Notes: generated by a model from the sequence alone, not told the origin. A stretch of DNA of 64,000 bases from Lytechinus pictus (GCF_037042905.1 NC_087251.1:10976001-11040000); one strand, 5' to 3'; positions 96 through 52,311 are shown, numbered from the stretch's first letter. Numbers and translations are program-made.

Positions 96-3000
96 GTCAG
101 TTCATAATTAATTCTTTTTTCAATGTTATATATTTCAAACATAATCATAATTATTTTAGAAAATACTCTATAAAACAGGATCAACTGGAACAAAAATGTA
201 TATAAACTAGATTGATTTTTGTTTTTCATGTTTTTTTATTTTTATTTTACTTGTCTTGTCTTGTCTTGGGTTAACTCGGCTTATGTAGGCTTTTTGTACT
301 CCACCAACTTTGTTGAAAATGTGGGGTCACCGAGCAAGCAGGTTACTTGCTTACTTTAGGCTATTGTGTGGCTTTTGTTTTGTATTAGTTCAGTGTCTTG
401 GGTTACAGTTGTGCTATGTTCAATTTATTCCAATCATTAATGGTCCGAGGGAAGAAACTGTATTTATGAGCATCCCTTTTGACTAGTTGGCGTCAGAGTT
501 TGTTGCTATTCCCTATAGTCTGCCGAGTGGTATAGGTGAATCGGAGGTGGTGGCAACAAGACCTTTAATTACTTGGAACATAAAGCAAAGTCTACTATCA
601 AATGCTGTTTGATATATATTTTAACCCATAGCAAAGGGTCAGAAATCAAGCATTCACGTTATTTGGTTCGGATAACATTTCTCTTTTTTTTTTAAGGTTT
701 ACTCGACGACATCATTGCTCGCTCTTTATATTCCAAGAGCACATCTTATAACCTACCTGACTGCAACACTGTAAGTACTTAGTCTCTCAACTTCTTCGGA
801 GGTGGCGTGGGTTGGGGGTTTCTTTTGCATTTTAGTAAACCAATGAAAGGGGTAAGCCTTTGAGATTCTACATAGTATGAATCTATTTATCACATTATAC
901 ATGTTATAGAGTTCGCTAGGTTAACCGATATATACTGTACTCTTTTGAATGCATTGATCGCTAACTGAACCAAATTATTTGAACGTGCAGAAAACGTTAT
1001 CGAGCATGCATCATGTTAATGCATGTCATAATAGGGACACAAAGCAAACAATTGTTGTCACCATGATCATAATATTTCTTTTGCTAAATTAGAACGGTAA
1101 ATCTTTGAAGCTACACTATTCTAATTGAACAAAGCTTCAGCCATCTCATGTAGATCGAAATTTAATTGAGATTCAACTGTGTATGAGGCGTAAATGTCTA
1201 GTTACAATCTCATTTGTTACACTCTCGTGTAGATATTTTTCGGTCGCCCTGTATCAGTTCTTGATGCTGATTGTGAGCTATTTTGGTGACAGGGACCAAC
1301 TGATTGTCAAGCTACAAGGCTCAAAGATTCCCATCGCCAGCCCTCCTTTACTCTGCTTCTTTCCTTGTCTTCCAAAACCAGATATGAATGTGTAAGTTCT
1401 CATTATATCTTCTTTGATAAATTTCCACAACTACGTACAGTTTCAAACTCCATCGGCATGGTGAACACACTCTTATTGAACTATTAGCAAATTATTCACC
1501 GCCAACCAACCGATAAACCAAAAAGCTGAACAACTGCACTAAAATTTGACCGCTAGCGAGTCAACCAACAAACCAATAACCACAACCAATTGTTAAAATC
1601 CAACAGAAACAAATCATCATACGGCACATGACAATCAACTAAATGTAGATATCCAACGACAACCATTAAAAATAAGCTAACTTACAAACTCGACGCCCAC
1701 TCTCCTCGGCCACCAATCAACCGACCAAATAAACAACAGCTGACAACCAATAATCATACAACAAAATAATCAAATGTATAATCATCAAACTATCAACTGA
1801 CTGATCATGATTGGGCCTGCCACCGACAGTGACTGTAACTTCTTCTTTCTGACAAATCAGCACGGTCTTTTAGTAATTCGATTACACAAATTTTGTTTAT
1901 CCCTTTACAGCAAGAACCTGCTCCGTCTTCGTCGTCTCGTTCTCCAGTTCGTCTTCATTCGACCGATCTGTAACTTCATCGCTCTTATTCTTTGGGCCGA
2001 CGGAACCTATGTTCCAGGATTGGTAAGTTATCACTTCTACAGTGCTATAAAATTAGATGAGGTTGCTGTTAGTTGGTCCGAGTTAGTTCCTTCACTTTCT
2101 CGGGTTTCTGTTTCGGTTTATTTCCAATTCGTCTATTGCCAATTCGTCCAATTGCCAACTCATCTACTATCATTTGGTCTACCATCAGTTCGTCAACAAT
2201 CCACATGGTCTAATTGCCAATTTGTCCACTCACCATTTCATCTAATAACCAGTTGGTCCATTTGGTCTAATTGGACTAAGTGTTAATTGTGCAAAAAGAA
2301 TGAAATTAAAATGGATATTAGACAAACTGGTTATGAGACTATATGGTGATTAAACGAAGTGATGGTTGGACCAAATGGATATTGAACCAAATGGTTGTTA
2401 GACGAAATGTTGATAGACGGAATGGTATTAGACTAAATGAAAGTAGACCATGTGGTGAGTTGGCAGTAGACGAATCGTCTACAAAACGTGCTCAGGTGAA
2501 CAAATGTTTGAAGATGACTGGCGTCTTTAAAGGGGAATCCAACCCAAATAAAAACTTGTTTTTATAACAAAAATACAAATCAGACAAGTTGATAGGTGAA
2601 AGTTTGAACAATATTGGACAAACAACAAGAAAGTTATGAATTTTTAAAAGTTGTAAATATTGGTAATCACTATACCCATGGAGACTTCAAATTGGCCGCA
2701 TATGGGATGTCATAGTGATGTAAGGCAAGGACTACTCTTCCATGTACTCCAATACATATTATGGCTAAAATGTCATTTTCCCCAAAAGATTTATTTCAAA
2801 TTATATTTTTCTTTCATGAGGGCATAAAGCAATATTCGACCTGGATTATATTTAGATTACTGTCCCAGGGGAATGAGTACTTAGGAGAAAACCACAAATC
2901 CCTGATAATAAAGTACATGGCCTATGGGAAAGTTGTCCTTGCCCCTTGTCATAATTTACTTACCCAGTTGCCAATTTGAAATCTACATAGTATTAGTGAT

Positions 3001-5698
3001 CTCAATTTTAAAGCAGCTATAATTTTCTTATTGCTTGTCCGATTTCTTTCAAACTTTCGCCATTCTGTTTAATATATATTTCTCCTTTCCAACACAACAT
3101 TTTATGGCCAAGGCTGGATTCCCCTTTAAGATCATGAGGATGTTAGCGCTTGATATGATAGATAGATAGATGGTTTATTAATAAAAATCAAGACCTCATC
3201 GCTGCTAAGGCCGAAATGCGATGTATTTACAAGGTAATAATGACACAAAAAATGTTCAAACAATAACACAGATAGTTACAAAATAAATAATACGGATGAA
3301 GTATTGTATTAAAACCACTTGTGTTGTAGAATTCTGGAAAGGAATATTAATTGAAAGTAAAGTGTATGTCTTAGAAACGACTTGTGTGTGTGCAATTGTA
3401 GTATTCAACTATATCATAATAAAATCGGAAATGATCAACAAATTAACGGAAACATTAAACATGTTAAACAAATTGGCAAAAGGTATTTTAAATGACGAAA
3501 ACATTAAGAGATAAAATATATAAAAAACTATATGATTCATACATGTGCTATGATACGATTTTATGAAAACGTGGGTAGCGTATGTGTTAATAATTCGTCT
3601 AGTATACTGCCAGTTTAAATTTTACGTTTATCAATTTTGAATAATTAACCTATATTAATAAATATTAAAAAAAGAAACAAGTTATCTATTAAACACAAAC
3701 ATAATAACATAATGAAGAAATCCTTATATCGGTGGAAAAAAAATGAAGATTATAGTCAGAAGCGTTTCCTGGTGTACAATCAAATCTGAATAATAGAGAT
3801 ATAATGGCGGTAAATTAAAGTAAGTAAAGCAGAATTAAGATTAATCTGAAACTAACCATTTCGTTTAAGGACTACAAATATTACATGAAATAAGAATTGA
3901 TTAATTAATATTATGAATTATATCTGATTTCGAATGCATGTATAGGCGGCCTATTGATAAAGGGAAACGATTTATGAACGTGTCCACCATAATTGCTAAA
4001 GTTTTCTTAGAAGGTCGTTGGTAATTCAGAGGCAGCGGAACGTATTTTCGTTGTGTGTGGGGGGGGGGGGGCAAAGCCAAAACGGGCACTTATATGTCAA
4101 AATGGGCAAGTGGTGCAACGGATATTTTTCCATGAGATTATCATCTACGTGAAGTAGTTTTGTGTTTTGTAGTAATTAATTACAGCGCGAGCTGAATATT
4201 TTTTATATTCTAACTTGAAAAGTTTACATTCTAAGCATATTTTGTAACCAGGAACAGAATGAGTACCCTACTGAACAATAATTGATGCAAGTGCGAAGCG
4301 CGAGCAAATTTTTTGGTGATTTTCTTAACTAAAATGTATAATGTTCAAAGAGGAAATTTCATAAATAAGGCACATTTCATTTCGAAAAAAACGAAATTTC
4401 CCCCTCAGGGATTTTTCTTTGAGGGGGGGGGGGCGGTTCCGCCGCCCCTGAGGTAATTGTTTTAATGTGGCAGTTTATCTATTTTTTAGAGAATAGAATA
4501 AGTACTGAATGAGCAGCATTTATAAATGAATATATTTCTAATAAAGGGTATTGAGATTGAACATATTTTCCGCCTCAAATAACATAAACAGTAATTCTTT
4601 TTCTGACAATCCAGTTTACAGCCGACAGTGCATACGTGTGGCTCTCGGTGATCGCTCTTTGTTCCACCTTTGCTGCCCTCTATGGCGTCATCATCCTTAT
4701 GCGAATCACCAAAGGACCCTTGGAGGGGTATAACGTCCAGCCCAAGTTCTTGCTCATCCAGCTCGTCCTCGTACTCATCACCTCTCAGCTTGTCATCGTC
4801 GGCATCTTCGTGCTCACGGAAATGGTTCCATGTGACTACCCATTGGGGTCGCTAGCCAGGGGATACTGTACGTGGCTTGTGATTTTATTTTTCTTTTCAT
4901 AGCGTCGCAATTTATCCATCATTCTATGATTTCCTTTCTTTATTTTATATATCTGTCCGACTGAATTGCTACAAATATATCCCAATCTTAATTCATAGTC
5001 GCGTGTAATTAAAATGATGAAGTGTTCACTTTCAGTTTAGCTTTCAAGAAATAATTGCCCTCATTATTATTAGGTAGCCCATTTCAATTTAACATATTTC
5101 CCAACAGAAGCTCTCGAATACTATGATTGATGACGCTTTTGAATGTTTGCGTTATTTAAGTTCTCCAAATCTATTATCTTCCGTTTGATTTTCCAACAGT
5201 TCTTGAATATTGATATGATCGATGGTGCTTTTGAATGTTGGCGTTGTTTAATTTTCCAAATGTATTATCTTTCATTCAGATTACTGCGATCTCCTGACAG
5301 TTGCAGAGATGCTGGTGTTCATCACCTTCGCACGGTTCTTCTTCCGAAAGCGCATCGACAGAACACCCTCTGGCAAGGACCACCCCGACCACACCTACAA
5401 CATCAGCAAGCGCAACTCCGAGCCCTATCTCGACATCAAAGAGAGCTACACCTCCTCCGTAACGACCTCAAAGATGAACGGCAACGGCGTCAGCTATAAC
5501 AACAACAATAACAGTGGATCTTTCGTCAACGAAGGAGCGGACGCTGTCGAGGTCGACGTTGAGAACGGGTCTACGTTGAAGTCCTTCAAAAAGCTCGAAG
5601 AGGAAGATGAATATCAGGATAGGGATGAGGTTGATGTCGCGCACGGAGATAGCGATATGCCGACGGACATCGAAGTCAGTATCCAGGAAAATGTGTAG
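1..5698 (+). CDS. SLC51A: OSTalpha-like transporter, paralog A (5' end upstream of window); spliced exons 1-95, 697-770, 1233-1391, 1911-2022, 4615-4867, 5280-5698
   Basis: All introns are GT..AG and the phases join into one open frame: IMYLEACHYINKK..ILGIYP / VYSTTSLLALYIPRAH.. / YFSVALYQFLMLIVSYFG..SPPLLCFFPCLP / ..LVLQFVFIRP.. / ..PKFLLIQLVLVL..VPCDYPL / ..DLLTVAEMLVF. The motifs (GIYP-V-S, PR, Cys-rich loop, LQ...RP, KF..IQ, C..P, EM) match OSTalpha/Solute_trans_a from family knowledge; no search was run. Confidence 0.88.
697..770 (+). CDS. SLC51A: OSTalpha-like A exon (74 nt)
   Basis: Poly-T tract plus AG acceptor, GTAAGT donor at 771; same length as paralog B exon 27702-27775. Confidence 0.88.
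1233..1391 (+). CDS. SLC51A: OSTalpha-like A exon containing the Cys-rich loop
   Basis: TAG acceptor, GTAAGT donor at 1392; YFSVALYQF..PPLLCFFPCLPKP. Confidence 0.88.
1911..2022 (+). CDS. SLC51A: OSTalpha-like A exon
   Basis: TTTACAG acceptor, GTAAGT donor at 2023; KNLLRLRRLVLQFVFIRP..YVPGL. Confidence 0.88.
2113..2477. repeat. Foldback-like element made of ~15-bp subrepeats in inverted arms
   Basis: Left arm has AATTCGTCTATTGCCAA.. units; right arm has the reverse-complement units ..TTGGCAGTAGACGAAT. Confidence 0.65.
2531..3125. mobile_element. Non-autonomous DNA transposon (MITE), Kolobok-like
   Basis: TTAA at 2527-2530 and 3126-3129; TIRs AGGGGAATCCA.CC / GG.TGGATTCCCCT; 595 bp; in an intron of paralog A. 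Confidence 0.8.
4027..4450. mobile_element. hAT-like MITE
   Basis: TIRs CAGAGGCAGCGGAAC / GTTCCGCCGCCCCTG (13/15); flanks TGGTAATT / AGGTAATT (7/8, 8-bp TSD). Confidence 0.75.
4615..4867 (+). CDS. SLC51A: OSTalpha-like A exon (253 nt)
   Basis: CCAG acceptor, GTACGT donor at 4868; same length as paralog B exon 30014-30266. Confidence 0.87.
5280..5698 (+). CDS. SLC51A: OSTalpha-like A last coding exon (last TM helix plus long acidic tail, ends ..IQENV*)
   Basis: TTCAG acceptor at 5275-5279, phase 1 matches the previous exon, TAG stop at 5696-5698. Confidence 0.87.
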
Positions 5699-7910: not shown

Positions 7911-8638
7911 GGTTTTTTTTGTATCATCGTCATAACCCTGATTGGTAATGTTGGTGTGAAGTTGCAGTGGTGTATCCAGTCTATGTTTCGGCTCATACAC
8001 ACCATAGTCTGCCGACCTACTAATGGTTAGTTTCGCTCATGTTCGCTCATTTGGTTTACGTAGCAGACGATGCTGGCCTGCTAGTTTATACTATACGTAC
8101 GCAGACCCTATTGCAAATCAAAATAAATTCCGGACTCGATACTACTAAATATTTGTTTTCTCAAACTGTAGCTATATATAATAAATATCAGTAGGCAAGG
8201 CTTTATAGTACAAGAACATTGTTACTTTCAAAGTATTATACATCAACATGTAGGTAATCTATTTAGCATTTAGATGACAATCAATCTCGTCTTTTTTACC
8301 CTTAGGGATATTTCAGTGGGAAAACAAAGGTGCCGGTGTCTCGAAAATATGGGTGGCTTCGGACCCTTTGCCATAGCAAGAGTTGTGAACATGGACAATT
8401 TCAAATGAACAGCTAGACGTAAACAGTGAATTAATTGTAATTATATTTACATCAAATTAATGGAAGTGAATTAAGTTTTCTTAAGTTTATCAACCTGGTG
8501 TGAGATTATTAATAATTATAAAGATATACCCGGATTTTTGCAATAAAACATTCATGAAAAGACTGTTCCCTGTGCTGAAGCTCTGTGTGTGGGCATTCGG
8601 ACACTCAAATGCACGGGACTAACAAATATATCTGCTCC

Positions 8639-8841
8639 ATTATAACTGAACTAACCATTATAACTGGGCGTTGTGGTGTGTGCCTGTAATCCAAGCTGTG
8701 GGGGAAGTTACAAATTGATGCAGAGGTTCGAGGTTCGAGCCCGGGTCACGTCTTTCGGATGGTGACGTTAAAGGTCGGTCCCAGACGTAAATAATCATAT
8801 CTGATTGATACACGTCAGACAAAACTCAAATACACAAACAC
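8639..8841 (+). mobile_element. SINE with a 7SL-RNA-like (Alu-domain) head, B-box, Deu/Nin-like core fragment and CA-rich tail
   Basis: 13-bp direct repeat ATATATCTGCTCC at 8626-8638 and 8842-8854. Head CTGGGCGTTGTGGTGTGTGCCTGTAATCCAAGCT (8664-8697) resembles the 7SL 5' end. B-box GGTTCGAGCCC at 8732-8742. GTCTTTCGGATGGTGACGTTAAAG at about 8750-8773. Confidence 0.75.
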
Positions 8842-11800
8842 ATATATCTGCTCCCATCACGTCCTTCTCTCTCTTTAGATAGAGGGTCAGGGGTCTGAAT
8901 CCCATCAAAGCGATACACTAGTATTCTCACCGTATTCACCAATTTAAATAGATATTTAAATCAATAGTTATTTCACTTTGGGAGGGCAACGGATATAAAT
9001 CATTGGTTGGAAATCTATTCAAATGCTTTTTTTATAAGCTGATATATTATATTCGTATCAATAAACCAACCAGTTTAACAAATCTACTTTATGTAGAAAG
9101 TGAAACATATTGTATGTGAATGAAAAGAAAGAAAGAGAATGAAATCGAAACGGGGGTTTGAGAAGAGAAAGGGGAGGGTGATAGTTGCATTCTTTGTTGA
9201 TCTCTCGTGGACATCTCTTCTGTTTAGCTCCCTCTATTGGTCATGTTACTCATATTGGTAATAATGATTTCTCACCAATCTGCAGATAAACAGACCAATA
9301 TGTACAAAAATAAAGATAAAGACAGGGAGAAATACAGTATAGAGGGGAAATTGAGGAGTGAATGGTGATTAAGGAGAAATAGGGGAAGACGAATAAGTGG
9401 GAGGAGGAGAAGGAGGAGGAGAATAAGATTTTTTTATAATCTTTGTTTCTCTGGTGTACTCGTTACAAGATGTGCTTTCAGAGTTGTCACCTTCATCATA
9501 TTGTAACTCTTATAATGTCTTAATGTGAATAATGCTTAGCCCTTGGAAACATCATTGTTGCTGACTTGAATCTTTGAATCTAATTGAATTGAATTCAATT
9601 TAATTTAATAATGCAAGTCCCCATGATGGTATCGTACTTTTACGCTAAGACAGTATTACTTTTCTAAGACTGCTTGATATAAGTTTCATTGTGGGTCATT
9701 TTGTCACTCATAATCTCGAATGCAGATTTGAATAAGAATGGCAATTTAAATAACAGAAATCAGAAATTGATTTCAAAGTCCATATCACTGTCTCATTACG
9801 TTTCCTAAATACATTTTGATTATGGATTTATGACTTAATAACGATTACATACCCCCTCTGGAGATATGTTTCTATCACGTTCAGAGAATGCTATTTGGTT
9901 TGTCTTAGAGTAGCAAATAGATAGATTGAAAGGGTGAGAGAGAAAGGAAAGAGAAGTAGGAGGACAGTTTGGTGGAGTGGAGAGGGAGGTGCATTAGAGA
10001 TGGAAAAAACGGAAAGAGCGAAAGATGGGGGGGGGGCATGTCATAGTAAAGGACGGTGAACGGAGGATTGGAGGGGTGTGGGTAAACATTGTAAAAGGGA
10101 AGTGGGCACAAGTGTACACAGGAGGAAACGGAAAAGGCAATGGCAATTTAGACAGGCCAACACATTCAAATCAATTTAATTTTTTTTTCTACTTTCAATT
10201 TTTCATATTCAAATTGTTCACATTTACATTCGCGATATTACAATAAGTTATTATAATGATTCCAAATTATTTTTTAATGACCGAAAACTAGACAATGCCA
10301 GGCCAGGGAAATGGCAGTACTGCCAACTTGTTATGCTACACGATTTTAGTTCCCAACGCCTGTACCATTATTTTGTTTTTCATTGACCAAGAGGGGGTTG
10401 AGGGGGTCTAAAACCATGATTTTAGGAAAGGCTTTAGTAAGAAGTGTCAAATATTATTTCAATCATTTTCAATTGAATTGGATAATAATTCAATATAGAG
10501 CAGGTCGATTAAGATTTAATGAAAGAAAACTTTTAATTGAAGGCACTTCAGTAAATACTTCTGAAAAGCAACCTCCCAACTCCCCGGTATAATTGGCATT
10601 ATATATAAAACATCCGTTCTATGCATAACCGTCATTTTGATACATTTGACACAGACCTTGCCCCCCCCCCCCCAACCGATCCTGTCCAATGTGGCTCCAA
10701 GCCCCCCTTGAGACGCAGATGGGTATCATTAATAAACTACCGTCTTTGGATTGATACACTTCTAATCTTATCAAAATTACAAATAGCAATCGAAGAAAAG
10801 AGGGTCGTTCTAACGCAATTAGTCGTAGGAAGTGTCAATACAAATTGCAATTGATACGCGTCACTATCCAATATATCCATTGTTTGTGAGTAAATATTAA
10901 CGTTATCTGTACACTGTGTTGAGGTGATGAGCAAGCACGTTTTATTGGGTAATAATATGGTGTAAGTAAACATACAAAACAAGGATGGGAAAGATAAGGA
11001 AGATCCAGTGTCGCCATGGAAATCAGATTCCAAGCCGAAATTGTGAGATTCCCTTTATATCATAATATTTAATTTTTCGATTTCATTTAATATAATATAT
11101 TAAACGCAGTATTTTGGTGCGGCAATTAAATTTTGAATTAACTGTGGTACTTTATACTGCTTCGCTCTTTACTTTGTTTGAAATGATGTTGTCATAAAAC
11201 AACAATAAAATATACAAGGATTCGATTTCATAAAAATTGTAGCCATATACTTATACATAACTTATATGCCCCATAATAATACATCATTTTTAAATACAGT
11301 AAATTGTTGTTTGACTTTCCATATATAAATGTGCGGATAATCTCCATTGTACTGCGCAATGAAGAAACCATACTCATACTTTTTAAAGGACGATATTTCA
11401 TAATGCTATATACCGACATCGAAAAACTCGTTCCACGTATCAGTGTAAAGTTTTGATGTTGACATCGTCTTATTTTGCACGTTTTTAACATTTAAAATCT
11501 TGATTGAATTTATTATTTTTTGTTTACTCCATTCATTATTTGATTTATTTTTTTAGGTGGAATTGATCCCCAATTGGATTGTAAGAATCTAGAAAATAGA
11601 AGTGATGCATGCCTATATATAGTCAAAAATTCATTCGAGTTCATTTTAAACCGATTTCTTATCATTGCGACGAGTAGAGAAGTTGCCGAGCAACGATCTC
11701 GCTTCTTTTGTATTACACAGGCCTTTGTATATCGACATCTATGTTAATGATGGTACAATTTTATTCTTTGAAAGTTTCATGTAATTTGATCCAAAATTGT

Positions 11801-17501: not shown

Positions 17502-18706
17502 CAGTGGTGTAACTACGGGGGGGGGGGGGCATGGGGGGCACGTGTCCCCCCCCCCCCCAATCGGCTGGGCCCAAAAAAAAAACGGGGGAAATTAGAAAAA
17601 GAGGGAGAAAGGAAGAGAAACGTAGTGGGAAAGAAGAAATTATTGTTCATTATAATGTAATATCATATTACAATTATGTTATGTTACTGTATATTACATA
17701 ATAATTTTTTTAATAACCGTATGAGACATAATTTGCTCAGGGTTTATGTCCTCATTGTTCCTGGTGCTCGCATTGTCTGTTTAACTAGATATAATAGATC
17801 AAATATTTTTTTCGGAACACTATAGTTTTCAAGTATATTTGAGAGACCTGACGTTGTCAAATCAAGTCAATATACACCAAATATATTTCCTCGCACTTCG
17901 AGTTATTATTGTTTTATGTAGTGACATATGCTTCTTTTTCATGACTACTTAAAGTGATTGCCCCATTTAAGGTCTTGATATAGAACATTTCCTGTCCGTG
18001 CTTACGTTCGCATTAGTGGATTGGTGAGATATGTCTGCTCTTCATGAATTCCTAAAATCAGTCATTAAAATGTCCCTTTTTCTGGTCTGAATATCAAAAA
18101 CATTTAGCTTGCGCTTCGCGCTCGCATCATCTGGTTAGTGAAATACGTATAGTCTTAGTAAATTCCTACAAACAAGCCTTAGAATGCCCCTCTTCAGGTC
18201 TATATTTCCTAAAGTTTCAGCTCGCGCTTCACGCTCGCAATATTTGATTAGTGAGATACGAAGTGATGATCATGATTGCAATGACTACAAAAAGTGCTTC
18301 ATGTGTTTAGATGTAATTCTAAACAAAATCAGCAAGCGCTTGGCACTCGCATTAGATGACTATGGTGAGATATGTATACTCTTAATGGATTCCTTAAAAA
18401 ATAGTCTTTAAAATATCCCTGTTTGGAGTCAATTTTATACAAAAATTTCAGCTCACGCTTCGCGCTCGTATTGTTTGTTTAGCGAGACAGGTAAGTATCA
18501 TGATAACAAAAATTTACTTATAATGTCTTTTTTAGGTCTGAATATCAAAAATCTTCCGCTCGCGCTTCGCGCTCACATTATTTGATCATTGAGATACATA
18601 TCCGTTTAATGGCACTGTCCTTAAAATGTCTCTATCAGGTCAGTATACCTGGACTAAAACATTTTGCTGCCCCCCCCCCAATGCCGTGACCCACGGTATG
18701 TCACTG
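17502..18706. mobile_element. hAT-like non-autonomous element with internal ~110-bp tandem units
   Basis: Perfect 8-bp TSD TCTGTACA (17494-17501, 18707-18714); termini CAGTGG..TCACTG; poly-G/C subterminal tracts; repeated GCTCGCGCTTCGCGCTCGCA units. Confidence 0.8.
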
Positions 18707-25349: not shown

Positions 25350-25467
25350 ATGGATGACTATACCGAAATGATGATGGTGACCAACTATAGCAATGCCACT
25401 CCTGGTCCAGTCTTACCGGCCTGTTGGCCAGTCCTTGTTGACCCTACGACATCAGAACTTCTGAATA
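25350..25467 (+). CDS. SLC51A: OSTalpha-like B first coding exon (exon begins 25320)
   Basis: TTTCAG acceptor, ATG at 25350, N-glycosylation sequons NYS and NAT, GTAAGT donor at 25468. Confidence 0.78.
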
Positions 25468-28400
25468 GTAAGTTTCCTTCTTATGCATTGGTCAATGTAT
25501 TGGATGGATGGGATAGGATAGATGCTGCAGTCAATACAAACACTTGAAAAAATAGTGATAGTGTTTTTGTATATGAAACAGCTTTCTGACCACTAAGTGT
25601 GTAGATGACAGTGACGAAGGATAATAATGATAATAATGATATTGACAATTACAGTAATAAATAATGAATTTAAAACAATGACAACAATAATAACATGTGT
25701 ATATGTGTATAAATTTCGCATCATTCAAAGCAGAGTACGCCTATTTATTTCATACTTCCCGTAAAAATAACAAGACAGAAACAGAGAAGTATGGAAAAGT
25801 TCGAATGGAGTCCTACTCTTCATTCATTTATCATCATCATGTACTTGATAAAAAATTTTGAGAAAAAAAGGAAAGATAGCATCTCCTTGTTGTCTCATTA
25901 CAACAGATGACTTCTGACCAAATTGAAGTCACAGTAAAGTTTATACAGTATATTCATTGTCGATTTTCACATGCATTTCTGAAAGAGGCCAGGGTATGGA
26001 ACTGTCAATGTAATGAAATTTGAATGGAAAAATTAAAGCTTAGCATAAAGGTTGGACCAATTATAGCATATGAAGCTCGTGTATTATTGGCAAAATACAA
26101 TAGCAGGTCATACAGATAATGAAGGTTAGTAACTCCCACATACAGACTTAAGGCGTGAGGATTCAGTCGAAAAATTAGAGGGTAAATAACCTTGTATGCG
26201 GATTAAAGTTAACGAAGTTAAATTTTATTGTGATAAGATGATAGTCGTTTATAAGAGAAGAGACCCCCCCCCCTGAAGTGACACTGCTATAGCACAACAC
26301 TATTTCTGTTTGCTATCATGTTAATATGAGAGATGGAAATGATAGATCGGTTATTTGTGATGACGATGGTGCGGCCATAAAGATTATGATGATGACGGTG
26401 GTAAACGGTGGTTGATATGGTGGTCGTATGACGATAATCATGCTCTCCTATGATAATGATGTCAATGATGATTACAATCATATCAATAATGAATCTCAAA
26501 TGATGTTGATTATTATTAAGAAGATTTTTTTTCCCTTTCACTTCTGCAGCGATAGGCGGGGACCCCAAATTTCTTGGGGTGATGGGGACAGCCATTGCCC
26601 TGACTGTTTTCAATGTCGGCATGTACCTCGAGACTCTATGGTTTCTTTGCAGAAAGATACCAAGCAGAAGAAAAATACAGCTCTCATTCATCATGGGTAT
26701 ATATCCAGTAAGTATATTGAAACACCTCATCCCCCTTGCCCCATCCCACACTCACCAAGGTAGTATCGTGCTTGAGTGCTGTTTCTCAAAATCTATTTAA
26801 GCCAGTGGCGTAATGAGCCCAAAATTTTGAGGGGGCTCGTTGTGGCATATCGCGTAAAATCAAGAAGAAGTTGGGAGCGAACGAAATGAGCGAGCAAAAA
26901 TGTCAAAATTTTTACTACAAAATTCAAGTTTGTGATAGATTTTGACATTATATTCGGTAAATAATATATCATCCTTATCCCTTTCCTTTCCTTTTCTTTC
27001 ATCTTCTTTTTTTATTGGTCGTGATTTTTTTTGTTTGGGGGGGGGGGGGAGCAAGAGCCCCCCAAGCCTCCCTATTTGTACGCCCATGATTTAAACATTT
27101 TAAGTTTTTGATTCAAAGAATTTCATATTCAAATCTGGCATCCTTTTGAACTACAGATTACAAGTTGACCGTTTCACATAAAACCGGCCCTTGGCTTTAA
27201 TAGCGAACGTGATCTTTCATGATGCATGGAGTGGCTATACCTCAATTTTTTCAAGTGAACAGCAATAAATGTTAACATTAGAGAAAAAGAGAAGAAGAAA
27301 AAAAAAGACGGGGAGGAGAAAGAGCAGAAAAAAAGAATAATAGTGTCTGGAAGAGAGGACCATGAATACCCCCATTCAAATGAGAATAATGATGACGTCA
27401 TCCCATCCCTATCAAAACACACTGGCGCCAATCTTCTGTATTTCCATAAGCTAAGAGAGCCGTTGCTATTATTGAGACAATTGCTCATATCTGTGTAAGT
27501 ACAGTGATGAGTGCGAATTCATAGATTTCAAAATTTTAAAGAATGATAACTATTTTGCTCTTTTTAATCTCAGGATACCATTCAAGAATGACCTTTATGT
27601 CTTTGATTAGTGATCGTACTTTTTTCAATAAGTTTGTTCTTCGCTCCGGACATGTTTATCTATCGTTCTCTATATTCCAGATACTTTTTTTTTCATTTCA
27701 GGTATTCTCAGTTACTTCTCTTCTAGCTATGTTCATCCCAAGAGCTTCGATTATTACAGGGTTCACAGCTCATGTGTGAGTAGTAAAATGACAATTAAAT
27801 CCTTGATATTTCCTCCTTTCTTTCTTTTGTTTTTCTCTCTATTTTCTTTCTTTATTTTTTCTTTATCTCTTTCTTTCTTTGATTCTTTCTTTATTTCTTT
27901 CTTTATTTATTTATTTATCTCTTTCTTTTTTCTTCCTTTCTTTCTTTCTTTCGTTCCTTCTTTCTTTCTTTCTTTCGTTCCTTCTTTCTTTCTTTCTTTC
28001 TTTCTTTCTTTTTCTTAACTAACTAACTAACTTACTTACTAACTGATAATCCATTTGCTTATTTACCTGTCTATTCGTTTAGTCATTCATTTATCTATGA
28101 ATTCATCTTGCATCCATTCCCCTTTTCCCTCTCATCTTATTTATTTTTAATATTCAAATTATCAATTTTTTTACTAATACACTTATCAAATCATTTACTT
28201 ATTCGTTTGACAGTAATCACTTTCACATATATTTACTACTCTCTTCCTGGTTGTTATTTACTCTACCATTTTACTTATGAATGCTGGTCCCTTTACTTTC
28301 ATTAGCTGATGCTGTTTTATAATCAGTAGTACACGTATCAATCATATATCTTATTTTCACATTCTGTTCTGTTAATCTGGGGGTTGGCTCTTTACATGTT

Positions 28401-31170
28401 CTGCCTTTTGTTGGGCTCTGATTTTATTTTCATTTTCATTCTTTACGGTTTGTTATTGTATATTTTATATCATGTTCATTTATGTTCATATGGATTGGCT
28501 TGTTTGATTAAAAAATATAAATGGATATAAAATGAAATAAAACAAATCTTGAACACTTGAATATTGAATAACCTTATAATATCGACTTCCAATCTAAGTA
28601 ATTAGTCATGTTTTTCTTTTCTCTTCAACAGATACTTTTCTTTGGCGCTTGTTCAGTTCATTATGTTGTTGACTGGTTACTATGGTGATAAAGATAAGAT
28701 GTTAAGGATATTAGATGGTACAATTATTCCACTGGCCACGCCACCGCTCTCTATGTTCTGTGTGTGCTGTCTACCAAAAGTTCCAATTAATAAGTAAGTA
28801 GGAATATTATGATCAATATTACGTATGGAATATGTAATACTGTATTATCATGCAATGGCTTTCGTTTACAACAAGCTGTTTAAGTATACTAATCTCATGA
28901 AATGTTCCTTATAAAATACACTTTATTATTAAATTTCTACTTTTATAATTTACTTTCCAGGTTCAATAAAGTAGGTTTGTAAAACAATAGTCAAGACCAA
29001 AATTTAGATTTTAATTAAATTTCTATTTGAAACAAACTTTCACGTGTCCGCGAGAGATAGGCCTATCCTGTTTTACACTTAGCGCAACATCTATTTATTA
29101 TATTTTTAAACCAGCGTCGTCACCGTAAAGGTATAAGAAATCAATACTATCCGGCTACTTATCTTCAACTTTGTCATTTCATGGCTATAATAATTCTTAA
29201 CAATGACGAGTGCTTAACTTCCTATTCTAGTATTCATATCTTCTGAGTTTTTCCCGGTGATGCACGAATTTTATTTTGAGTATGGTACCTATTATTTCTA
29301 TGATAATTACTAATGAAGCCCTTTATTTTTCTTTAAGGTTTACGCTTCCCAAATTCGTGAAGTTAATTCGTGGTTTGGTGCTTCAGGTTGCCATCATCAA
29401 ACCTCTTTTCTACTTTCTTGGTGCTATCTTATGGCTCAATGGATCATTCATTCCAGGCGATGTAAGAAATATACTAAAGTACAAGCCGAATATACTTATA
29501 TACCTCTAAGTTAAATTCATTTGCTGGATCTATTCTAGTGAATATTCTATTTCATATATCAATAGAATGCCAATCCAGCTATCTGGAATTTACAAACTGA
29601 TTAAGGAATGAGTGGTTCGGATGCGTCCTCGGTCAAGTCTTTCCCCAGTTCGATCGCAGACGTAAATATCCATTTATTTTGGACCCATTTCATATAGGCA
29701 TATAACTATGTTAATTGTTTTTTTACGATCATGTAAAATTGTTTTTAAAAAAAGACAACCAAATTTTGGTACTTTTAATGATTGGTGAGCATTTTCCTTC
29801 TGGCGTAAATACACAACTCGTGACATTCGTTTTCGCAGTTCAGTTCAAGACAATTTATTTTTTCTCAAAGATACTAACCATAGCAAGAGCTTTATGTAGT
29901 ATCCTTCCCATATCTCTTATACATAAACAATTCATAGTATACTTGTCTCTGTTTCAATCGAATTCTTGACAGTCAATATAGATGTGATTTATTTATGTGT
30001 TATCTCTACGCAGTTTTCAAGTTCTGGAACCTACTTGTGGTTCAACGTCATCTATATTGTCTCGACACTCTTCGCTCTCAACGGCATCATCATCTTCTAC
30101 AGGTTGTCAAATGAACCGCTCAAGGAATACCACCTTACGCCGAAATTCTTCACCGTCCAGCTCACCCTCATTCTCACAAACGTCCAGTCTTTCACCATTG
30201 GTATCTGCGCCATCACAGGGGGTATCGCCTGTAAGCCACCCTTCCATCCGGGCTTGAGGGCGCTGTGTAAGTTTGTTTCATTCTTCTATTATCTTTGATC
30301 CATTTTGTAAGATCCTATTCATTCTGGTCCTGATGCATAAATCTAACACCGGTGGCCATTTCTACAACAGAACTAAACAAATGCCAAAATGCGAACAACT
30401 GGCCAAAATCCCAACTTTCACTCGTTCTTTAATTATTTTGCTATTTTTGTTCTGCTTTCAGTAATATTTGTGATCATATTATGTTCTAGTTTATGTTGTG
30501 TTGTATAGTTCGCCAGTGGAAACCGAATTTTAATGTAGTTGTAAACAGAGACCCAATAAACTAACCTGTATTTTTGTATCAAATCAAGGGTTCATAGAAG
30601 GCATCATCAAAGACAAAGTTTCCATTATTGTTTTTTTACTCTCTCATTATCTCTCTTACAGACATCGATAGTTTACTCAATATCATCGAGATGTTTCTCT
30701 TCAACATCTTCGCTACCGTCTGGTACCGGAGAATGAAAGGCAACATGGGTCGTGACCAACTCCTTGAAAGGCGCGACTACGCCAGACTAAGCCAGAACTC
30801 ATACCGTCAAGATGCAGCCAAACAGATCGCTCTGGGTGACGAAAACGACAACAAGACCGATCTCGCTCTTTACAAACCAGACGTCGGGAGGAATACCACA
30901 CAAAATGGCGGCTCGTCTGTTCACCTGGAGGGAGATAATCCATGGCATCAGTTTGGCAGTGAGCATGAAAGCGAGCAGAAGCAGCCGTTTCTTCATGTGG
31001 TTGCAAACCAGCCGAATGGAAGTGTTGCATGTAAGGTGACCAATGAAACTTCTCAACAGCAACCATCACCGCGAAATAACTTTCAGGAAGAGACTGTCGA
31101 AAGAGGCTCAATCAAGTCAGGGTCAATTCCGTGGAGTGGTTCTGGGTCAGACAGGGAGACGGATGTCTAG
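25350..31170 (+). CDS. SLC51A: OSTalpha-like transporter, paralog B, complete; exons 25350-25467, 26550-26707, 27702-27775, 28632-28793, 29338-29461, 30014-30266, 30662-31170 (1398 nt, 465 aa)
   Basis: All introns are GT..AG with compatible phases. MDDYTEMMMVTNYSNAT..C..PTTSELL / ..MYLETLWFLCRKIP..GIYP / VFSVTSLLAMFIPRA / YFSLALVQF..TPPLSMFCVCCLP / LVLQVAIIKP / PKFFTVQLTLIL..IACKPPF / IIEMFLF. The first coding exon has an acceptor at 25319, so an upstream exon (probably 5'UTR) exists. That exon is open in frame before the ATG, so the exact start codon is less certain. Confidence 0.9.
26550..26707 (+). CDS. SLC51A: OSTalpha-like B exon
   Basis: CTGCAG acceptor, GTAAGT donor at 26708. Confidence 0.88.
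26803..27088. mobile_element. hAT-like MITE in an intron of paralog B
   Basis: Termini CAGTGGCGTA / TACGCCCATG; flanks ATTTAAGC / ATTTAAAC (7/8). Confidence 0.68.
27702..27775 (+). CDS. SLC51A: OSTalpha-like B exon (74 nt)
   Basis: TTTCAG acceptor, GTGAGT donor at 27776. Confidence 0.88.
27815..28045. repeat. (CTTT)n / (CTAA)n low-complexity tract
   Basis: Directly visible, intronic. Confidence 0.85.
28632..28793 (+). CDS. SLC51A: OSTalpha-like B exon with the Cys-rich loop (not in the ORF track)
   Basis: CAACAG acceptor, GTAAGT donor at 28794; YFSLALVQFIMLLTGYYGDKDKML..PPLSMFCVCCLPKVPIN. Confidence 0.88.
29338..29461 (+). CDS. SLC51A: OSTalpha-like B exon
   Basis: TTTAAG acceptor, GTAAGA donor at 29462. 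Confidence 0.86.
30014..30266 (+). CDS. SLC51A: OSTalpha-like B exon (253 nt)
   Basis: ACGCAG acceptor, GTAAGT donor at 30267. Confidence 0.88.
30662..31170 (+). CDS. SLC51A: OSTalpha-like B last coding exon (ends ..DRETDV*)
   Basis: TTACAG acceptor, phase 1 matches, TAG stop at 31168-31170. Confidence 0.88.
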
Positions 31171-34039: not shown

Positions 34040-35526
34040 TGAGGGGCGCCGAATTGATGTTGTGGCGCCGCCGAATTGATGTTTTACTTAGGGGCGCCGA
34101 ATTGCAGTTTGATATAGGGGCGCCGAATTTTAATATGTTTGACCTAGTGGGGCACCGAATAGATGTTCGACCTAGGGGCGCTGAATTGATATTCAACCTG
34201 GGGGGGGGGGGGCGCCGAATTGATGTTCGACCTAGGGGCGCCGATTTGATGCTGGACATAGGGGGACGCTGAAATAATGTTCGACGTAGGAGCGCCGAAT
34301 TGATATTCGACATTGTGGGGAGCCCAATTGACATGATTGTTATCCGACCTAGGGAGCGCCGAATCGATGTTTTATTTCGGAGTGCCAAATTGATGTTCGA
34401 CATAGGGGCGCCGAATTTATCTTCTACTTAGGGTCGCCGAATTGATGTTCGGCATAGAGGGGTCAATTTAAAGTTTGTCCTGGGGCGCCAAATTCGTGTT
34501 CAACCTAGGGAGGGGGTGCCAAATACATTCTAGTATTCGAGATTTGGGGCGCCAATTTGATGTTTGACCGGGGGGGGCGCCAAATTAATGTTTCACATGG
34601 GTTTGGCGCTCGCATCAAATGCATAGTTAGATGCCCATTCTGTTCATGATTACTAAAAGCGCTTAGAAATCCAAATTTTAGGTCAGAATATTAACAATTT
34701 TCAGCTCCCTCTTCGCGCTCGCATCAATTGTTTAGTAAGGTGACAATCGATCCTGTTCATAGTTAGATAAGTGCTTAGAATGTCCAATTTTGGGTTGAAA
34801 TATAGAAAAATTCAGCTCGCGCTTCGCGCTCACATTAAATGTTTTGTTAGATACTCATCCTAGTCATGATTACCAAGAGTGTTTATAACGTCCAGTTTTG
34901 TGACGAAATGTGAAAACTTTCAGTTTGAGCTTCGTGCTCGCATCGATTAGTTAGATGCCCATTTTGTTCATGATTACAGAAAGTGCTAAGGATGTCTAAA
35001 TTTTAAGGCAGAATATAAAAAATTTCATCAATTGCTTAGTTAGATGACTATGCTGTTCATGATTACTAAAAGCGCTTAGAATGTCCAAATTTTAGGTCAG
35101 AATTTCACATTTTTTTCAGCTAACAGTTCGCGCTCACATAAATTGCTTAGATGACCATTCTGATCATGATTACCAATGTCAGAATATCAGATTTTTTTAG
35201 CTCGCGCTTCCGCGCTTCGCGCTCGTATAAAAATCATTTTTAGATACTCATTCTGTTCACGATATTCAAGAGTGCTTAGAATGTCCAAATCTAAGGTCAG
35301 AATATCGTGTTTTTTTTTTAGTGTGCTCTTCGCGCTCGCATCAATATCGTTATTGTTTGTTAAAGGTGGTATAACATAATATTCATGGATATTTTTTTTC
35401 ATGAACACATAAAAAGCGGTCTTCTAATGCCCTTTTTCACGTGATTATGAAATAAGATAATTCAACATGCATTTAAGGCCAAAATTAGGTCGCCCCCGGG
35501 GGTGCGAAATCCTGGATACGCGCCTG
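34040..35526. repeat. Composite transposon-internal repeat: ~26-bp minisatellite (AGGGGCGCCGAATTGATGTTCGACCT-like, 34040-34600) followed by ~110-bp GCGCTTCGCGCTCG units and a hAT-like right end
   Basis: About 20 degenerate GGGGCGCCGAATTG units; then units homologous to those in 17502-18706; ends CCTGGATACGCGCCTG; left terminus not found. Confidence 0.75.
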
Positions 35527-37143: not shown

Positions 37144-39696
37144 CTAAATTTGTGCGAGAGGTAGATCATAAAAAATGAGATGACTTCTACTAACAGTCTG
37201 ATCTTCAACCTGAAGTTGAAAATGGATTGTGCCGGGACTGTCCCCCGTCTCCAAACAACGAACTTCAAGTTCTTTTCCTTGATGAATCTCTCGTATGTAC
37301 TCCACAGAGTATGTCTTTAATTTGTAATGGATCAACTCGAGGTGGAACGACTTGAGGAAACCAGCCGAGGCTGCAGAACTTCCTGCTTCAAACACCAATC
37401 GCAGATACATCATTATGCTAACATGTTGATTGTAATCAACGTCATTCCATTGAACAGTGGACCTCCACTTGAAGACATCACCTTCTGCATGCTGCAAGGG
37501 AAGGTTTCTGCGGCGGTGTCTCCAACGTGATCTTATCCTCGTACTTCTCATTGGTTTCGGGATCGATTGGGATTGGTTTTCTTTTCTTCATGTCCATTGC
37601 CATTCATTGAAGTTGACCTGTCATGTAGAGCAAGTCGGTCCCATCGTCTCGGAGATCGAAGCCTATGAACATGGATGTTCTTCCGAGGTAGGACATGTAG
37701 GAATCGTATCTGACCGGACGTGAAATGAAGATCGTTTCGTGATAAGCAGGGAGGATGTTGAGAAGAGTGAGACAGCGCCCAACAAACGATACATCACTAT
37801 CTTGACAGATGCTGCATGGTACACTGTAAGTGGAAGATAACCGAGAAGGCAGTGAGGGAGAACGGTTCCTGTTGGAAAGTTTAAAGAAGAGAAGAAAAAA
37901 AGGGGAAGGAAATATGAACATTTGAATATAAAGAAATATAGGCAAGAAAATGATAAACCCATCACGGTTCTTATTTCTTACTAGATTTTTTTTTTTCATT
38001 TCAAATATTTATGTTTTTCATTTTTCCCAAAATACAAATTCTGCTGCTGTTACATGAATAATGGACAATGTTTGTAATAAAGGGGACGTCATTTTTTTAA
38101 TACGTAAAATAGAAAATAGTGGTACTATTATTTATTGGGGGAACAAATCTGATCGGTTTTGGATTAACTTCCGAGCTTTATAGAGAGACACCCAATCTAT
38201 TATATCTCTTATTTTTACAAAAGAGCAAAGCTCTGGCAGAATTTGGCAACGGCAACGAGATCTTGACAAAGATTATTGATATATGTTTTTTTTAATAGAG
38301 TCCGATATGCATTTGTTAAGAATCAACCAATGACTGCATGGCAAAAAAGTTTCTTACCGATTTTGCTGAAATCGGTCCAACTGAATTCCTTTAACTTATA
38401 TGATTTCGGATATTCGTTGTTTAGTATTCTCAGAAAGAAATCCTTCAAAAACGTACGAAATTTAGCGTAGTCTTCTTTCCCTCTTGTTGACATCCCCCTG
38501 ATCTCTCGTTGCATTACTCTATCACTATTGGCAATTGTCTTAGTTCTGCACAAATGTTGAAAAAAATATTATAATATATAATTAAAAGTAAAACAAAATG
38601 TAAAAGAAAATCATAAATCAATCACTTAGACACTTTCCCTACTTTAATACAAGAATTTTACTCTAATAGGACTTCATTTTTAAGTTGTCTGGTTTAATAG
38701 ACAGTGTCGAGGTGAGAAGCAATGTTGAACAGGGTGTGAAAAAACGAAAATGAAAAAGGGATAAAATGAGAAAGTCGAGCTTCATAGACCAATACATGCT
38801 TGATAATAACACAGAGTCCTACAATGTGTCCCCCAATTTGTTCACAGTGTGGAACACAATGTGAATACACTGACACTGCCATATGTCCAGTAGGGTATTC
38901 CGCACAATGGTATTAATGCGTATCTCATTTTAAGAATACCTATATCAGGAATATCGCGACCCTTGTCGAATTTGTCAGCATGCTTGTAAAAAAACATCAA
39001 TTTTGTATAAGAATACAAAAAAGGCATTGTAAAATGTTGGAGTTATGTTTGATGATAATTTACCCTCGAACATGTCGAAGTTATCCCTGGGAAGGAGTAA
39101 AGCGATCAAGACAGTGGGTGAAATTGTGCGTGTATGCATGAATGTATGAATAGTGGTCTAACGCGTAAGACTCAACTTTCTTTGGAACAGTTTGAAGGGG
39201 CTATACATTCGCAAATATTTTCGATGTGCATAATATCATATTTCTTATATAATCTACCATCCACAGGATCGTGGACAGATGTGACCAAAGAATAAAATAA
39301 AACGAGCGAACTAAGAATTAGGAAAGATTCACCGATACCAAGATGATAGTTAGTTCGTTCGTTCAGTAGTTATTCACCTTCCCAAATGAGTATTATACTG
39401 AATATTACGAAAAGAACTAACAACCAACAGCTTTGGCTAATAATGATCATTGATTACCGCAAAGCATTTGATCCAATCACACCACCCTGTGGAAGACTCC
39501 ACAGGGTGGGACCGGGGGTGGGAGGCGGTGATCGGACAAAGATAACTGGAAGTTTTTCCGATGTCTCCACCGATCTTTCTAATCGCCCATCCATCCTTGA
39601 AACATATCGTTTAAGTATCATCAGATCTCCAGCCGTACGTGAAACGACTGATGTCGATAGCATCAGGGGCTCTTTATAAACTGCCTCATTTTGCAT
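37144..39696 (-). pseudogene. Double hotdog-fold thioesterase-like gene (acyl-ACP/4HBT thioesterase-like), disrupted; putative exons 39696-39458 and 37868-37144
   Basis: The C-terminal frame has V-QWNDVDYNQHV..Y..(V)EY.REI..G.EL.V, a thioesterase D-x-D-x-N-x-H-V signature. The N-terminal half has YMSYLGRTSM..FDLRD and D.KKRKPIPI. In-frame TGA at 37606-37604 and a 1-nt frame offset near 37490-37515. The acceptor at 37870-37869 and donor at 39457-39456 join in frame. The upstream exon is less certain. Confidence 0.7.
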
Positions 39697-49270: not shown

Positions 49271-50925
49271 TACTTTGATTTTTTATTTATTTTGAATTTA
49301 TTTATTACCAAATATCACTGTCAGGTACAATTACAAGGAATAGTACATCACATATAAACAAAACATTTGGTAATTGGAGCTAACATAATAGCAAGATGCT
49401 AATCGAGGTTAGCCCCAAATAATGTCATTATAGTTTAAACAATAATTTTAACTAAATATCAATATTGTACATCAAATTCAGTACTAATTCTACTTATTAC
49501 TGTTGCAGAAAATTTCGATCATTTTTAGTGAACATATTTACACTATTTACAAGAAAAAAATATCTTAATTATTCACAAAATCTTTATATAGAATTATTTG
49601 TTTTCAGGCAGTATTTTACCATACCAAATTGATTATAATCTTCCAGTAGCATTAATTTTAACGATTTGCTAAATATCTTACGACTGGGGGTGTTTCTAAT
49701 ATTACTTGGCAGATGATTCCATAAAGTAGGACTAGTAAATGAAATTGATCGTTTTCCCAAATTGGTATTATTTTTGTCAAGATTAACATTTCGCTTTTCT
49801 CTATTTCTTGTATTGTAAGGATGGTCTATACTAAATGAAATATAATCAATAAAACTATGCGGCAACCGATTATTAATTAAATCGTGCATAAATACTCCTA
49901 TCAAATATTGGTATTGTTTTAAAATATCGAGAATATTTAGATCATAAAATAAAGGAGCAGAGTGATAAGTATGATGGTTGAACGTCATTATTCTAGCTAT
50001 TCTTTTTTGAAGTAATAATATAGGGTTCAGGGTTGTTTTGCACGTCCCACCCCAAACTTCCAGACCGTACGTTATATGTGGTAAAATAAATGAGTTGTAT
50101 AACATAACTAAGATTCTCTTTGTTACATAATTCCTCAATCTATAAAGTATTCAAATTGTTTTGCTTAGCACATTGCATACAATGTCAACCTGTTTCTTCC
50201 ATGTAAGGTTTTTGTCGATACATATACCAAGAAATAATGTTGATTCCACACACTCTAATAAAGTTCCTTCAGTGACAATTGTCCTGATATTAAAATATTT
50301 TTTCGTCTATTTTTAAACAACATATATTTAGTCTTCGTAACATTGATTATCAATTTGTTGGCATTGCACCATGTTATTATATTGTTTAAACTGAGACTAA
50401 TTTCTGATAAATCAATATGTTGTTCATCACAATTTAAAGTATGAAATAAAGTCATCCGCAAAAAGAAGGAAATTGAAATAATTTGATGAGTTTGCCAGAT
50501 CGTTTATATACAACAAGAACAAAGTTGGACCCAAAACTGATCCTTGTGGAATACCGCATGAAATTGACCTGTATTCGGAATTTACACCATCATAATTAAC
50601 AAATTGCTTTCTGTTTCGTAAATAATCATTAAACCATTATACCGCCTTACCGCGAATGCCATTATAGTTCTAGTTTTTTAATGAGAATAGAATGATTAAT
50701 CGTATCAAAAGCTTTAGCAAAATCGATGAATATTCCTACTGTCACCTTTCCTTCATCAGTATATCTTGTAATTTGATTAATCAGATTTATCAGTGAAAGT
50801 TTCGCACTGTATCCATTTCTAAAATCATTTTGGTGTTTATACAATATTTCATTCTTTTTTATGAATTTCATTAATCGTGCATTCACTAGTTTTTCAAATA
50901 TTTTGCTAATCGTGGCTAAAATCGG
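49271..50925 (-). mobile_element. 5'-truncated, decayed non-LTR retrotransposon (CR1/L2 group) ORF2: RT domain, C-terminus and 3'UTR
   Basis: The minus strand reads ISKIFEKLV, IFIDFAKAFDTINHSILIKKL, CGIPQGSVLGPTLFLLYINDL..FLLFADD, W..ANKL.IN..KTKYM, LYNSFILPHITYG.EVWG..LQKRIAR. Several stops and frameshifts; 3'UTR stem-loop near 49375-49415 and an AATAAA-rich tail near 49271-49307. Confidence 0.92.
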
Positions 50926-52311
50926 TACAAGAAACAGCTCAAAATTAAGAAAAGGGTATATAAAAAAAGGAAACGCCTGTGAACTTATAATGAAATTATA
51001 ATTAGAAAAAAAGAATTACTTTGAAAAATACGGGTAATGTTATTTTTTGACATTCTTAATTATTTTTGTCGGTAGTAATGTGCAGTAAGATATTTGAAAT
51101 AACAAAATCGAGTATTGTACTACGATTCTTTTTTTCTTTTGCAATACCGAACTCGAAAAATTGTCTATAAAGTCGGGCAACAGAACAAATCGACTCTTTA
51201 TACTGGAGAATGAAAGGTTGTATAAGTAAACTGTTGTTGAAATATTCAGACATCACCTCCTCCTCCTCGATACTGTATCCAAATATCAGTCACTTCATCA
51301 GAAAATTTCCCTTGAGATGACATCATCATCCAAATACGATTCTAACTGTGTGACTTTCTTAAAACCAACATTATTGTGGGTGCGTGCGTGCCACGTTCTT
51401 TATGTTTGCAGAAGATGTAACACAAAGAGAAATTTCACAAAAAACGATGATTTGCAGGCGTAAAAGTCACCTTGAAGTAATACGATTCATTCTATAATTC
51501 TCTTTATCTGAATAATAATGACATCATTGTCGTGGGAAGGAAAAGAAAGGTTTTTCAGTGCCTATAAAGAATGTCCGACGTTAATCCTCAAACTAGTACT
51601 TTCTTTGGAAAATGTGGCAGTGCTTGTAAGACATTTTGTTCAATTTCATTTGTTTCAGAATTTATAGGCTACGACTTTAAACACCCTTCTGGTTCTCAAA
51701 GTTGTCTTAATTATGATAATAATCATACCATGATTAATTAATTGATTGATTTTTGTTCGTCAGGTATAACACAAGATATCGAATGTAAAATTGTTAGGAT
51801 CAAATTGATATCTTGACAGGATAACCAATGAAAGTCGAAATTGCTTATTTCCAATGGGGTCCTATACATGATTGACGACAAACACTATACAGCTACAAAC
51901 GAGGTAAAGCAAACCAGAAATCTAAAGTAGCAAATACAAAAAATATGTTACTAACTCTTTGGAAAAGACGAATGTATTTATATGCTTTCAAGTATTCGCT
52001 GATAATGCATCAGGTTAAAGTATGTGATAGACGAGAAAGGTGATATTGGAGATAATTGAATGAGAGAGAAAGGGGAGAGAGAAAAGGGGAGAGAGGGGGA
52101 GGGGGAAACTAGAAATAGTAAGAGAGGTAGAGAAAGGAAGAGAGATGGAGACAGCAACGGGTGAAATGATAAGGAGGAGAAATCGAGGGGCATTTCAAAT
52201 AAGAAAATTGATACGAGATTATTTAAAGTAACTTGCGCAAGCGTGACCACAAACAAAAATTACGAAAGAACAAGAAGACGTAAGTGGATGAGGTTGTCAG
52301 GATGATATAAC

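Follow-up and report, generated by a model that had tools for sequence, protein, structure and literature searches.

The 64,000 nt stretch of the Lytechinus pictus genome analysed here (GCF_037042905.1, NC_087251.1:10976001-11040000; hereafter 'the window', with positions counted from its first letter) carries, at 8626-8854, a short insertion flanked by a target-site duplication (TSD). The 5′ end of the insertion resembles the Alu domain found in 7SL RNA, the RNA component within the signal recognition particle (SRP), and its 3′ half resembles that of short interspersed elements (SINEs) of the tRNA-derived type. The host is a sea urchin, and Lytechinus is a tractable laboratory animal. The insertion lies between two tandem paralogs of the OST-alpha gene, approximately 2.9 kb past the last long open reading frame (ORF) of the first one. 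The features of the locus are as follows, where L001, L002 and L003 denote three related loci from metagenome contigs and LINE stands for long interspersed element.

8626-8638 (+): left TSD copy, 13 bp (8618-8638 possible with two mismatches), from the exact repeat, shuffled sequences and a mismatch-tolerant comparison.
8639-8662 (+): 5′ junction filler or leader, containing part of a 12 bp duplication.
8663-8710 (+): head resembling the 5′ Alu domain of 7SL/SRP RNA, about nt 1-48; SRP match, helices 2, 3 and 4 pairable, with a weak fold as the contrary sign.
8711-8731 (+): linker, holding the first unit of a 7 bp tandem duplication.
8732-8742 (+): RNA polymerase III B box (motif), no mismatches, aligned in register with its counterparts in L001-L003.
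8749-8781 (+): Inv-like block, corresponding to the first block alone of the Deu/Nin domain, from a by-eye comparison with Fig. S4 of PMC7245038.
8784-8816 (+): 3′ stem-loop, candidate recognition site for a LINE reverse transcriptase; pair probabilities 0.70-0.93.
8817-8841 (+): A/C-rich degenerate repeat tail; the relatives finish with AC- or AACC-type repeats.
8842-8854 (+): right TSD copy, from the exact repeat.
About 691-5698 and 25350-31167 (+): OST-alpha (PF03619) tandem paralogs, exons about 37-60 % identical where compared; the second corresponds to a protein named for L. pictus.

The insertion and its boundaries

The two copies of the 13 bp direct repeat are identical and enclose 203 bp (8639-8841); extending them leads to a mismatch. 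An exact 13-mer direct repeat arose in just one of 2000 dinucleotide shuffles of the region 8500-9000. The whole window holds 30 exact 13-mer pairs spaced 150-300 bp apart, most of them within tandem-repeat regions, and a 13 bp repeat by itself is not unique in the window; this one is informative because its copies bracket a SINE-like stretch. An earlier note on this DNA, made from the sequence alone, had described a 203 bp insert with a perfect 13 bp TSD in a non-mammalian host, and it was right on all three counts. Its start of the insert applies to the interval between the TSD copies and not to the element proper, which begins at approximately 8663 and measures 179 bp from head to tail, with 8639-8662 as the junction filler or leader.

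When mismatches are tolerated, the repeat can be drawn out to 8618-8638 and 8834-8854, with identity at 19 of 21 positions, which may reflect either a longer, imperfect and older TSD or microhomology of the tail with the target. The 13/13 identity limits pairwise divergence only to less than about 21 %, and is therefore by itself no proof of recent activity. The recently active family that had been proposed from the intact TSD is not established on these grounds, and the window contains no second copy.

At the 5′ junction, the short duplication reported before is confirmed as a 12 bp unit at 8637-8648 and 8655-8666, which takes in the final two TSD bases and the initial four of the head; it suggests slippage or re-priming at this junction. 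The spacer inside the duplication (8650-8655) repeats the 6-mer at 8618-8623, just upstream of the left TSD copy, and may be a templated insertion or a chance match. No ORF of at least 90 amino acids overlaps the 179 bp element, and its 3′ end is of the simple-repeat type. Internal promoter motifs, a TSD and a short non-coding body with a simple-repeat end, which are traits of a SINE, are all present.

A 7SL-like head on a tRNA-SINE body

The Rfam Metazoa_SRP model (RF00017) matches 8663-8719 with 24.3 bits and an E value of 2.9e-4 in the 701 bp searched; over the whole window the E value is 0.026, and the match is one of three at E≤1. The alignment runs from model position 1 to about position 48, and 33 of 46 consensus columns are identical by hand count, and 13 differ, 11 of them by transitions. 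When the head is placed on the Rfam structure, three of three positions of helix 2 can pair, six of eight of helix 3 and three of three of helix 4, and the GUAA-type junction is retained. Two pairs of helix 2 are altered on both sides relative to the consensus, as expected of compensatory changes. The head also keeps the G4-U23 wobble, which has been reported as conserved (PMC4238359), and the minimum-energy fold of the isolated head contains helix 3 (six pairs). The best loop-loop registers consist mostly of G-U pairs.

The 5′ end thus described appears to be homologous to 7SL RNA, which is the mark of a SINE1-type head, at a score below the Rfam gathering cut-off; in this sense the 7SL-like head of the earlier note gains support from the covariance search. 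The label 'Alu-like', also used there, holds for the 5′ domain and for nothing beyond it. The other of the two Rfam matches at E≤10 in the 701 bp, to mir-1268 (27.5 bits against 83), was rejected: it reflects the same Alu-type sequence and not a microRNA. Inside the head, an A-box-like motif at 8666-8676 departs from the tRNA-type consensus at two positions; the A-box and B-box assignments throughout are motif matches to consensus sequences.

Beyond the linker stands the B box. A tandem duplication had been held to create it, and the two 7 bp units lie at 8723-8729 and 8730-8736, with a B box free of mismatches starting at 8732. Approximately 55 bases separate the A-box-like motif from the B box, and the first run of at least four T residues downstream of the element is at 9027.

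The body had been likened to the Deu/Nin core of ancient SINE superfamilies. This likeness stands for the first block, where 8749-8781 and AmnSINE1_HS share 26 of 33 columns (compared by eye on Fig. S4 of PMC7245038), and falls for the rest: about 33 bases of a domain of 131-142 bases match, and the remainder is missing save perhaps for 10 of 13 bases at 8784-8796, which correspond by eye to the second block. The block at 8749-8781 also resembles that of HaSE1. Membership of the Deu/Nin superfamily demands the full domain, and the element is, on this comparison, not a Deu SINE. PMC5804259 defines Inv as the 5′ portion of Nin, which in turn belongs to Deu, and lists Inv for echinoderms. The presence of the first Deu block alone, taken with this definition, means that the body is therefore best named Inv-like, a name given from the description of Inv rather than from its consensus.

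The body closes with a hairpin whose inner stem is invariant in the element and its three relatives (four of four sequences), with a variable loop. Compensatory changes number zero among the 28 predicted pairs of the body in these four sequences, which is uninformative. The CA-rich tail described before is present as degenerate A/C repeats; poly(A) is absent from the 3′ end of the element, and the hairpin plus A/C tail stands in its place. Between 8788 and 8824, 29 of 38 columns match the tail of a MESC SINE copy from a scallop (by eye, Fig. S2 of the supplement to PMC4758252). MESC-type tails are described in PMC4758252 as being of unknown origin, with the 5′ end of the element tied to Nimb LINEs, and other bivalve SINE tails have been tied to Nimb, CR1-Zenon, CR1 and L2 (PMC11481361). 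A partner LINE of the stringent I/Nimb or RTE type might be slightly favoured over L1.

The three related loci were found by scanning metagenome contigs with a 23-base motif from the body. Across 8732-8833, L001, L002 and L003 are identical to the element in 84, 92 and 89 of 102 columns, respectively (82-90 %). The agreement extends to both sides of the search motif, with 46/57, 57/64 and 49/61 columns matching downstream of it and 14, 17 and 14 of 21 upstream, and none of 500 shuffles reached the body scores. The head scores against the same three loci were reached by 320, 335 and 484 of 500 shuffles, showing that the likeness does not continue upstream of the B box. L001-L003 gave no SRP match with Rfam, and A-box motifs lie 44 and 69 bases ahead of the B boxes of L002 (one mismatch) and L003 (none). 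As the B box of the element is in register with those of L001-L003, it therefore comes from their SINE lineage and not from 7SL. A 10-base likeness between the linker and the sequence upstream of the L003 B box was discarded as not significant, its score being reached by 70 and 99 of 500 shuffles.

The chimeric build that the earlier note had proposed is borne out by a head that does not align with the tRNA-like heads of the body-sharing relatives. Judged by its sequence, the element is a real chimera, in which a 7SL 5′ domain is joined to a tRNA-SINE body.

The relatives also merit a description of their own. Their SINE-like bodies (L001 580-685, L002 580-690, L003 251-372) are 81-89 % identical to one another and follow three different tRNA-like heads; they possibly represent an undescribed, conserved Inv-type SINE group. 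The hairpin loop of L003 carries a 9-base insertion. No convincing TSD surrounds any of the three, the best candidates being 7-mers in L002, and L001 stops at the end of its contig. The body motif gave no matches in prokaryote genomes. Its only match in viral contigs (L004) is limited to the motif itself and was set aside as chance, and a second motif gave no matches in viral contigs.

Family copy, single chimera or chance resemblance

We consider it likely that the locus represents a single copy, complete in length but decayed to some degree, from a family of 7SL-headed SINEs, not least because a one-off chimera in a random 64 kb window should a priori be much rarer than a copy from a family. 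A number of observations weigh against this interpretation. The SRP score of the head is far under the Rfam gathering cut-off of 70, and the predicted fold of the head on its own, at -6.3 kcal/mol, is weaker than that of 199 of 200 shuffles (z +2.14). When the whole 179 nt RNA is folded, the pair probability of helix 3 is 0.0 and that of helix 4 is 0.01. No second copy of the element occurs in the window, the three metagenome matches include no 7SL-headed relative, and no LINE end within the window matches the SINE tail. As to the relatives, the head of L001 is less clear, with no A box found near its B box, and neither ARAGORN nor Rfam calls any of the three a tRNA, so that 'tRNA-like' refers to motifs only (0-2 mismatches).

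An ordinary tRNA-derived SINE whose drifted head had come to resemble 7SL by chance, both starting with a G-rich A box, would explain the modest Rfam score and whole-window E value, the lack of a stable head fold and the presence of a B box and body of tRNA-SINE type. We regard this as very unlikely, because the resemblance is spread over 33 of 46 columns from the first position of the model, takes in the helix 3-4 junction and includes two double-sided pair changes that preserve helix 2, and because the head has no likeness to the heads of the relatives. A head nearer to tRNA than to 7SL was the objection that the earlier note had raised to its own proposal; the tRNA models of ARAGORN and Rfam gave no match on the head, in a test of low power that missed L001-L003 too.

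The single copy in the window, the other heads borne by all three related loci and the irregular 5′ junction, read as template instability at insertion, would suit a one-off or low-copy chimeric retrocopy. Here, a LINE reverse transcriptase would have started on the tail of a tRNA-SINE RNA, copied it as far as the B box and switched once to 7SL RNA, in the manner of U6-L1 chimeras, without a family arising. This course of events seems unlikely to us: the head contains just the functional 5′ domain, at a workable distance from the B box, and the linker with its internal 7 bp duplication suggests a history before the insertion. The one candidate for a second copy, at 29585-29682 within an OST-alpha intron, was rejected (nhmmer match at 29647-29682, E 0.023, with a poor alignment); its collinear likeness to the linker and body could be due to chance or, perhaps, to a very old relative.

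The genomic setting is that of a sea urchin. Over 168 amino acids, the translation of 30664-31167 shows 100 % identity with an OST-alpha-like protein that bears the name of Lytechinus pictus; identity with the protein of Strongylocentrotus purpuratus is 74 % (the two matches among 212 candidates). A search of sequencing runs with 8000-9500 listed 24, of which 20 contain a low fraction (0.05-0.12) of its sequence words, and no RNA run is among those listed. The insertion site is intergenic or in a long untranslated region. Human Alu contamination or an assembly artefact, which might be invoked for a head similar to Alu-derived models (the mir-1268 match), is extremely improbable for an element that is flanked by a TSD, sits in sea urchin DNA with an OST-alpha gene on either side, has no Alu continuation past nt 48, shares its body with elements from marine metagenomes, and departs from the Rfam consensus in helix 2 by compensatory changes.

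Elsewhere in the window, the minus strand carries ORF pieces of a thioesterase-like gene at 37144-38008 (PF13279 and PF20791 on 37147-37587; two long ORFs in different frames) and a fragmented LINE-type reverse transcriptase at 49584-51015 (PF00078 on 50665-51015), the end of which is unlike the SINE tail. A possible second scrap of reverse transcriptase, without a Pfam match, lies at 39350-39679. Degenerate tandem and dispersed repeats with 64-79 % identity occupy 34040-35350, 18008-18603 and 4184-4335, and one repeat family recurs near 4.2 kb, near 18 kb and at 34.6-35.3 kb.

Proposed mechanism and comparison with known SINEs

The element is probably a SINE1-type element in an invertebrate, with its B box and everything 3′ of it taken from a tRNA-headed SINE lineage. 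We propose a model where a short SINE of the tRNA type, its body Inv/Deu-like, lost its head together with the A box and received nt 1 to ~48 of 7SL RNA instead; the probable route is a template switch while the RNA was being reverse-transcribed. RNA polymerase III would transcribe the chimera from a hybrid promoter, made up of the 7SL A box and the tRNA-SINE B box, and would read through to the T-run at 9027. The 5′ Alu domain would bind SRP9/14 and bring the RNA onto ribosomes, a LINE reverse transcriptase would recognise the 3′ hairpin and tail, and target-primed reverse transcription would leave the TSD. In this way, the element may have spread as a family in its sea urchin host. An SRP match from nt 1 to about 48 fits the 46 nt 5′ Alu domain, which has been shown to bind SRP9/14 and to sustain Alu retrotransposition in HeLa cells (PMC12199147).

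A real 7SL-headed family could also exist in which the head is merely a passive donor of an A box and SRP9/14 binding is irrelevant to the spread; the identity of the element is then the same as in our model, and the mechanism alone differs. Helix 3, with two unpaired positions and several G-U pairs, and the mostly G-U loop-loop register would be at home in such a family, and the body's own 3′ hairpin could suffice for recognition by a LINE. We find a passive head somewhat unlikely, given that the retained piece is the SRP9/14-binding unit and nothing more, and that the weak pairs are mostly C-to-U changes, which could be decay in one copy. In its complete form, our model describes the first invertebrate family of 7SL-derived SINEs and a fourth independent SINE1 origin: only the ~46 nt SRP9/14-binding domain was captured, a tRNA SINE supplied the B box, SRP9/14 serves to reach ribosomes, and a hairpin-recognising LINE other than L1 does the copying, with tRNA-headed sisters alongside. 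This full scenario is quite possible, and we advance it tentatively.

According to a 2026 paper on Urop, the known 7SL-derived SINEs are confined to supraprimates, hagfish and a single shrew mole, and all of them keep both 7SL ends (PMC13023118). No report of a 7SL-derived SINE from an echinoderm appeared among the papers listed by the literature searches, which covered open-access text and leave aside Repbase, Dfam and SINEBase. If our reading is true, the class of 7SL-derived SINEs extends to invertebrates. Like Alu, B1, Tu and the shrew-mole Urop, the sea urchin element is headed by a 5′ Alu domain with an A box; unlike them, it lacks 7SL ends on both sides of a ~183 nt central deletion, a poly(A) end and, probably, the link to L1 (PMC13023118, PMC7245038). 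The joining of 5′ and 3′ 7SL segments across a central deletion, a trait of Alu, B1, Tu, Urop and hagfish Ebu1-1, is not seen in an element whose SRP alignment stops at ~nt 48, and neither is the B box inherited from 7SL that those five have in common.

Hagfish SINE1-1_EBu (Ebu1-1) offers a close parallel, with an independently acquired 7SL head on an older tRNA-SINE body, TSDs and a short A/C repeat tail in place of poly(A) and L1 (PMC7245038). For hagfish SINE1, a head swap onto a SINE body was proposed by Kojima 2020 (PMC7245038), and the 5S-headed Deu SINEs represent the replacement of a head by another small RNA (PMC4758252). From 7SL, Ebu1-1 retains a 5′ segment of 96 nt, a 3′ segment of about 44 nt and the B box, and its tail is of the bipartite RTE type (PMC7245038), whereas the sea urchin element has nt 1-48 only, a tRNA-SINE B box and an Inv/Deu-like body. 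With AmnSINE1, EbuSINE1 and the sea urchin SINE2-3_SP, which are Deu, Nin or Inv SINEs, it shares the first Deu block (26/33 against AmnSINE1_HS, by eye; PMC7245038, PMC5804259, PMC4758252). It differs from these SINEs in its 7SL-like head and in lacking the remaining ~100 bases of Deu, SINE2-3_SP and Inv being compared by description.

L001-L003 share the B box, body, hairpin and start of the tail with the element, and differ in having three non-SRP heads and no clear TSD. The occurrence of the same body with tRNA-like heads brings a standing question within reach of a test, namely whether a SINE profits from an SRP-binding head when its partner LINE is not the L1 of mammals.

The head itself finds its nearest counterpart in the minimal Alu constructs SA46/AY46 of Moldovan et al. 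2025, which consist of the same ~46 nt 5′ domain (PMC12199147). Those authors argue that the missing B box kept the 46 nt piece from succeeding in nature (PMC12199147). If our interpretation is true, natural elements can do without the 3′ Alu segment provided that they obtain a B box, the lack of which was the obstacle named in PMC12199147. SA46/AY46 are engineered and driven by an external promoter (PMC12199147), whereas the sea urchin element obtains its B box from a tRNA SINE; it would then be the natural counterpart of the minimal Alu construct, with tRNA-headed sister elements as built-in controls.

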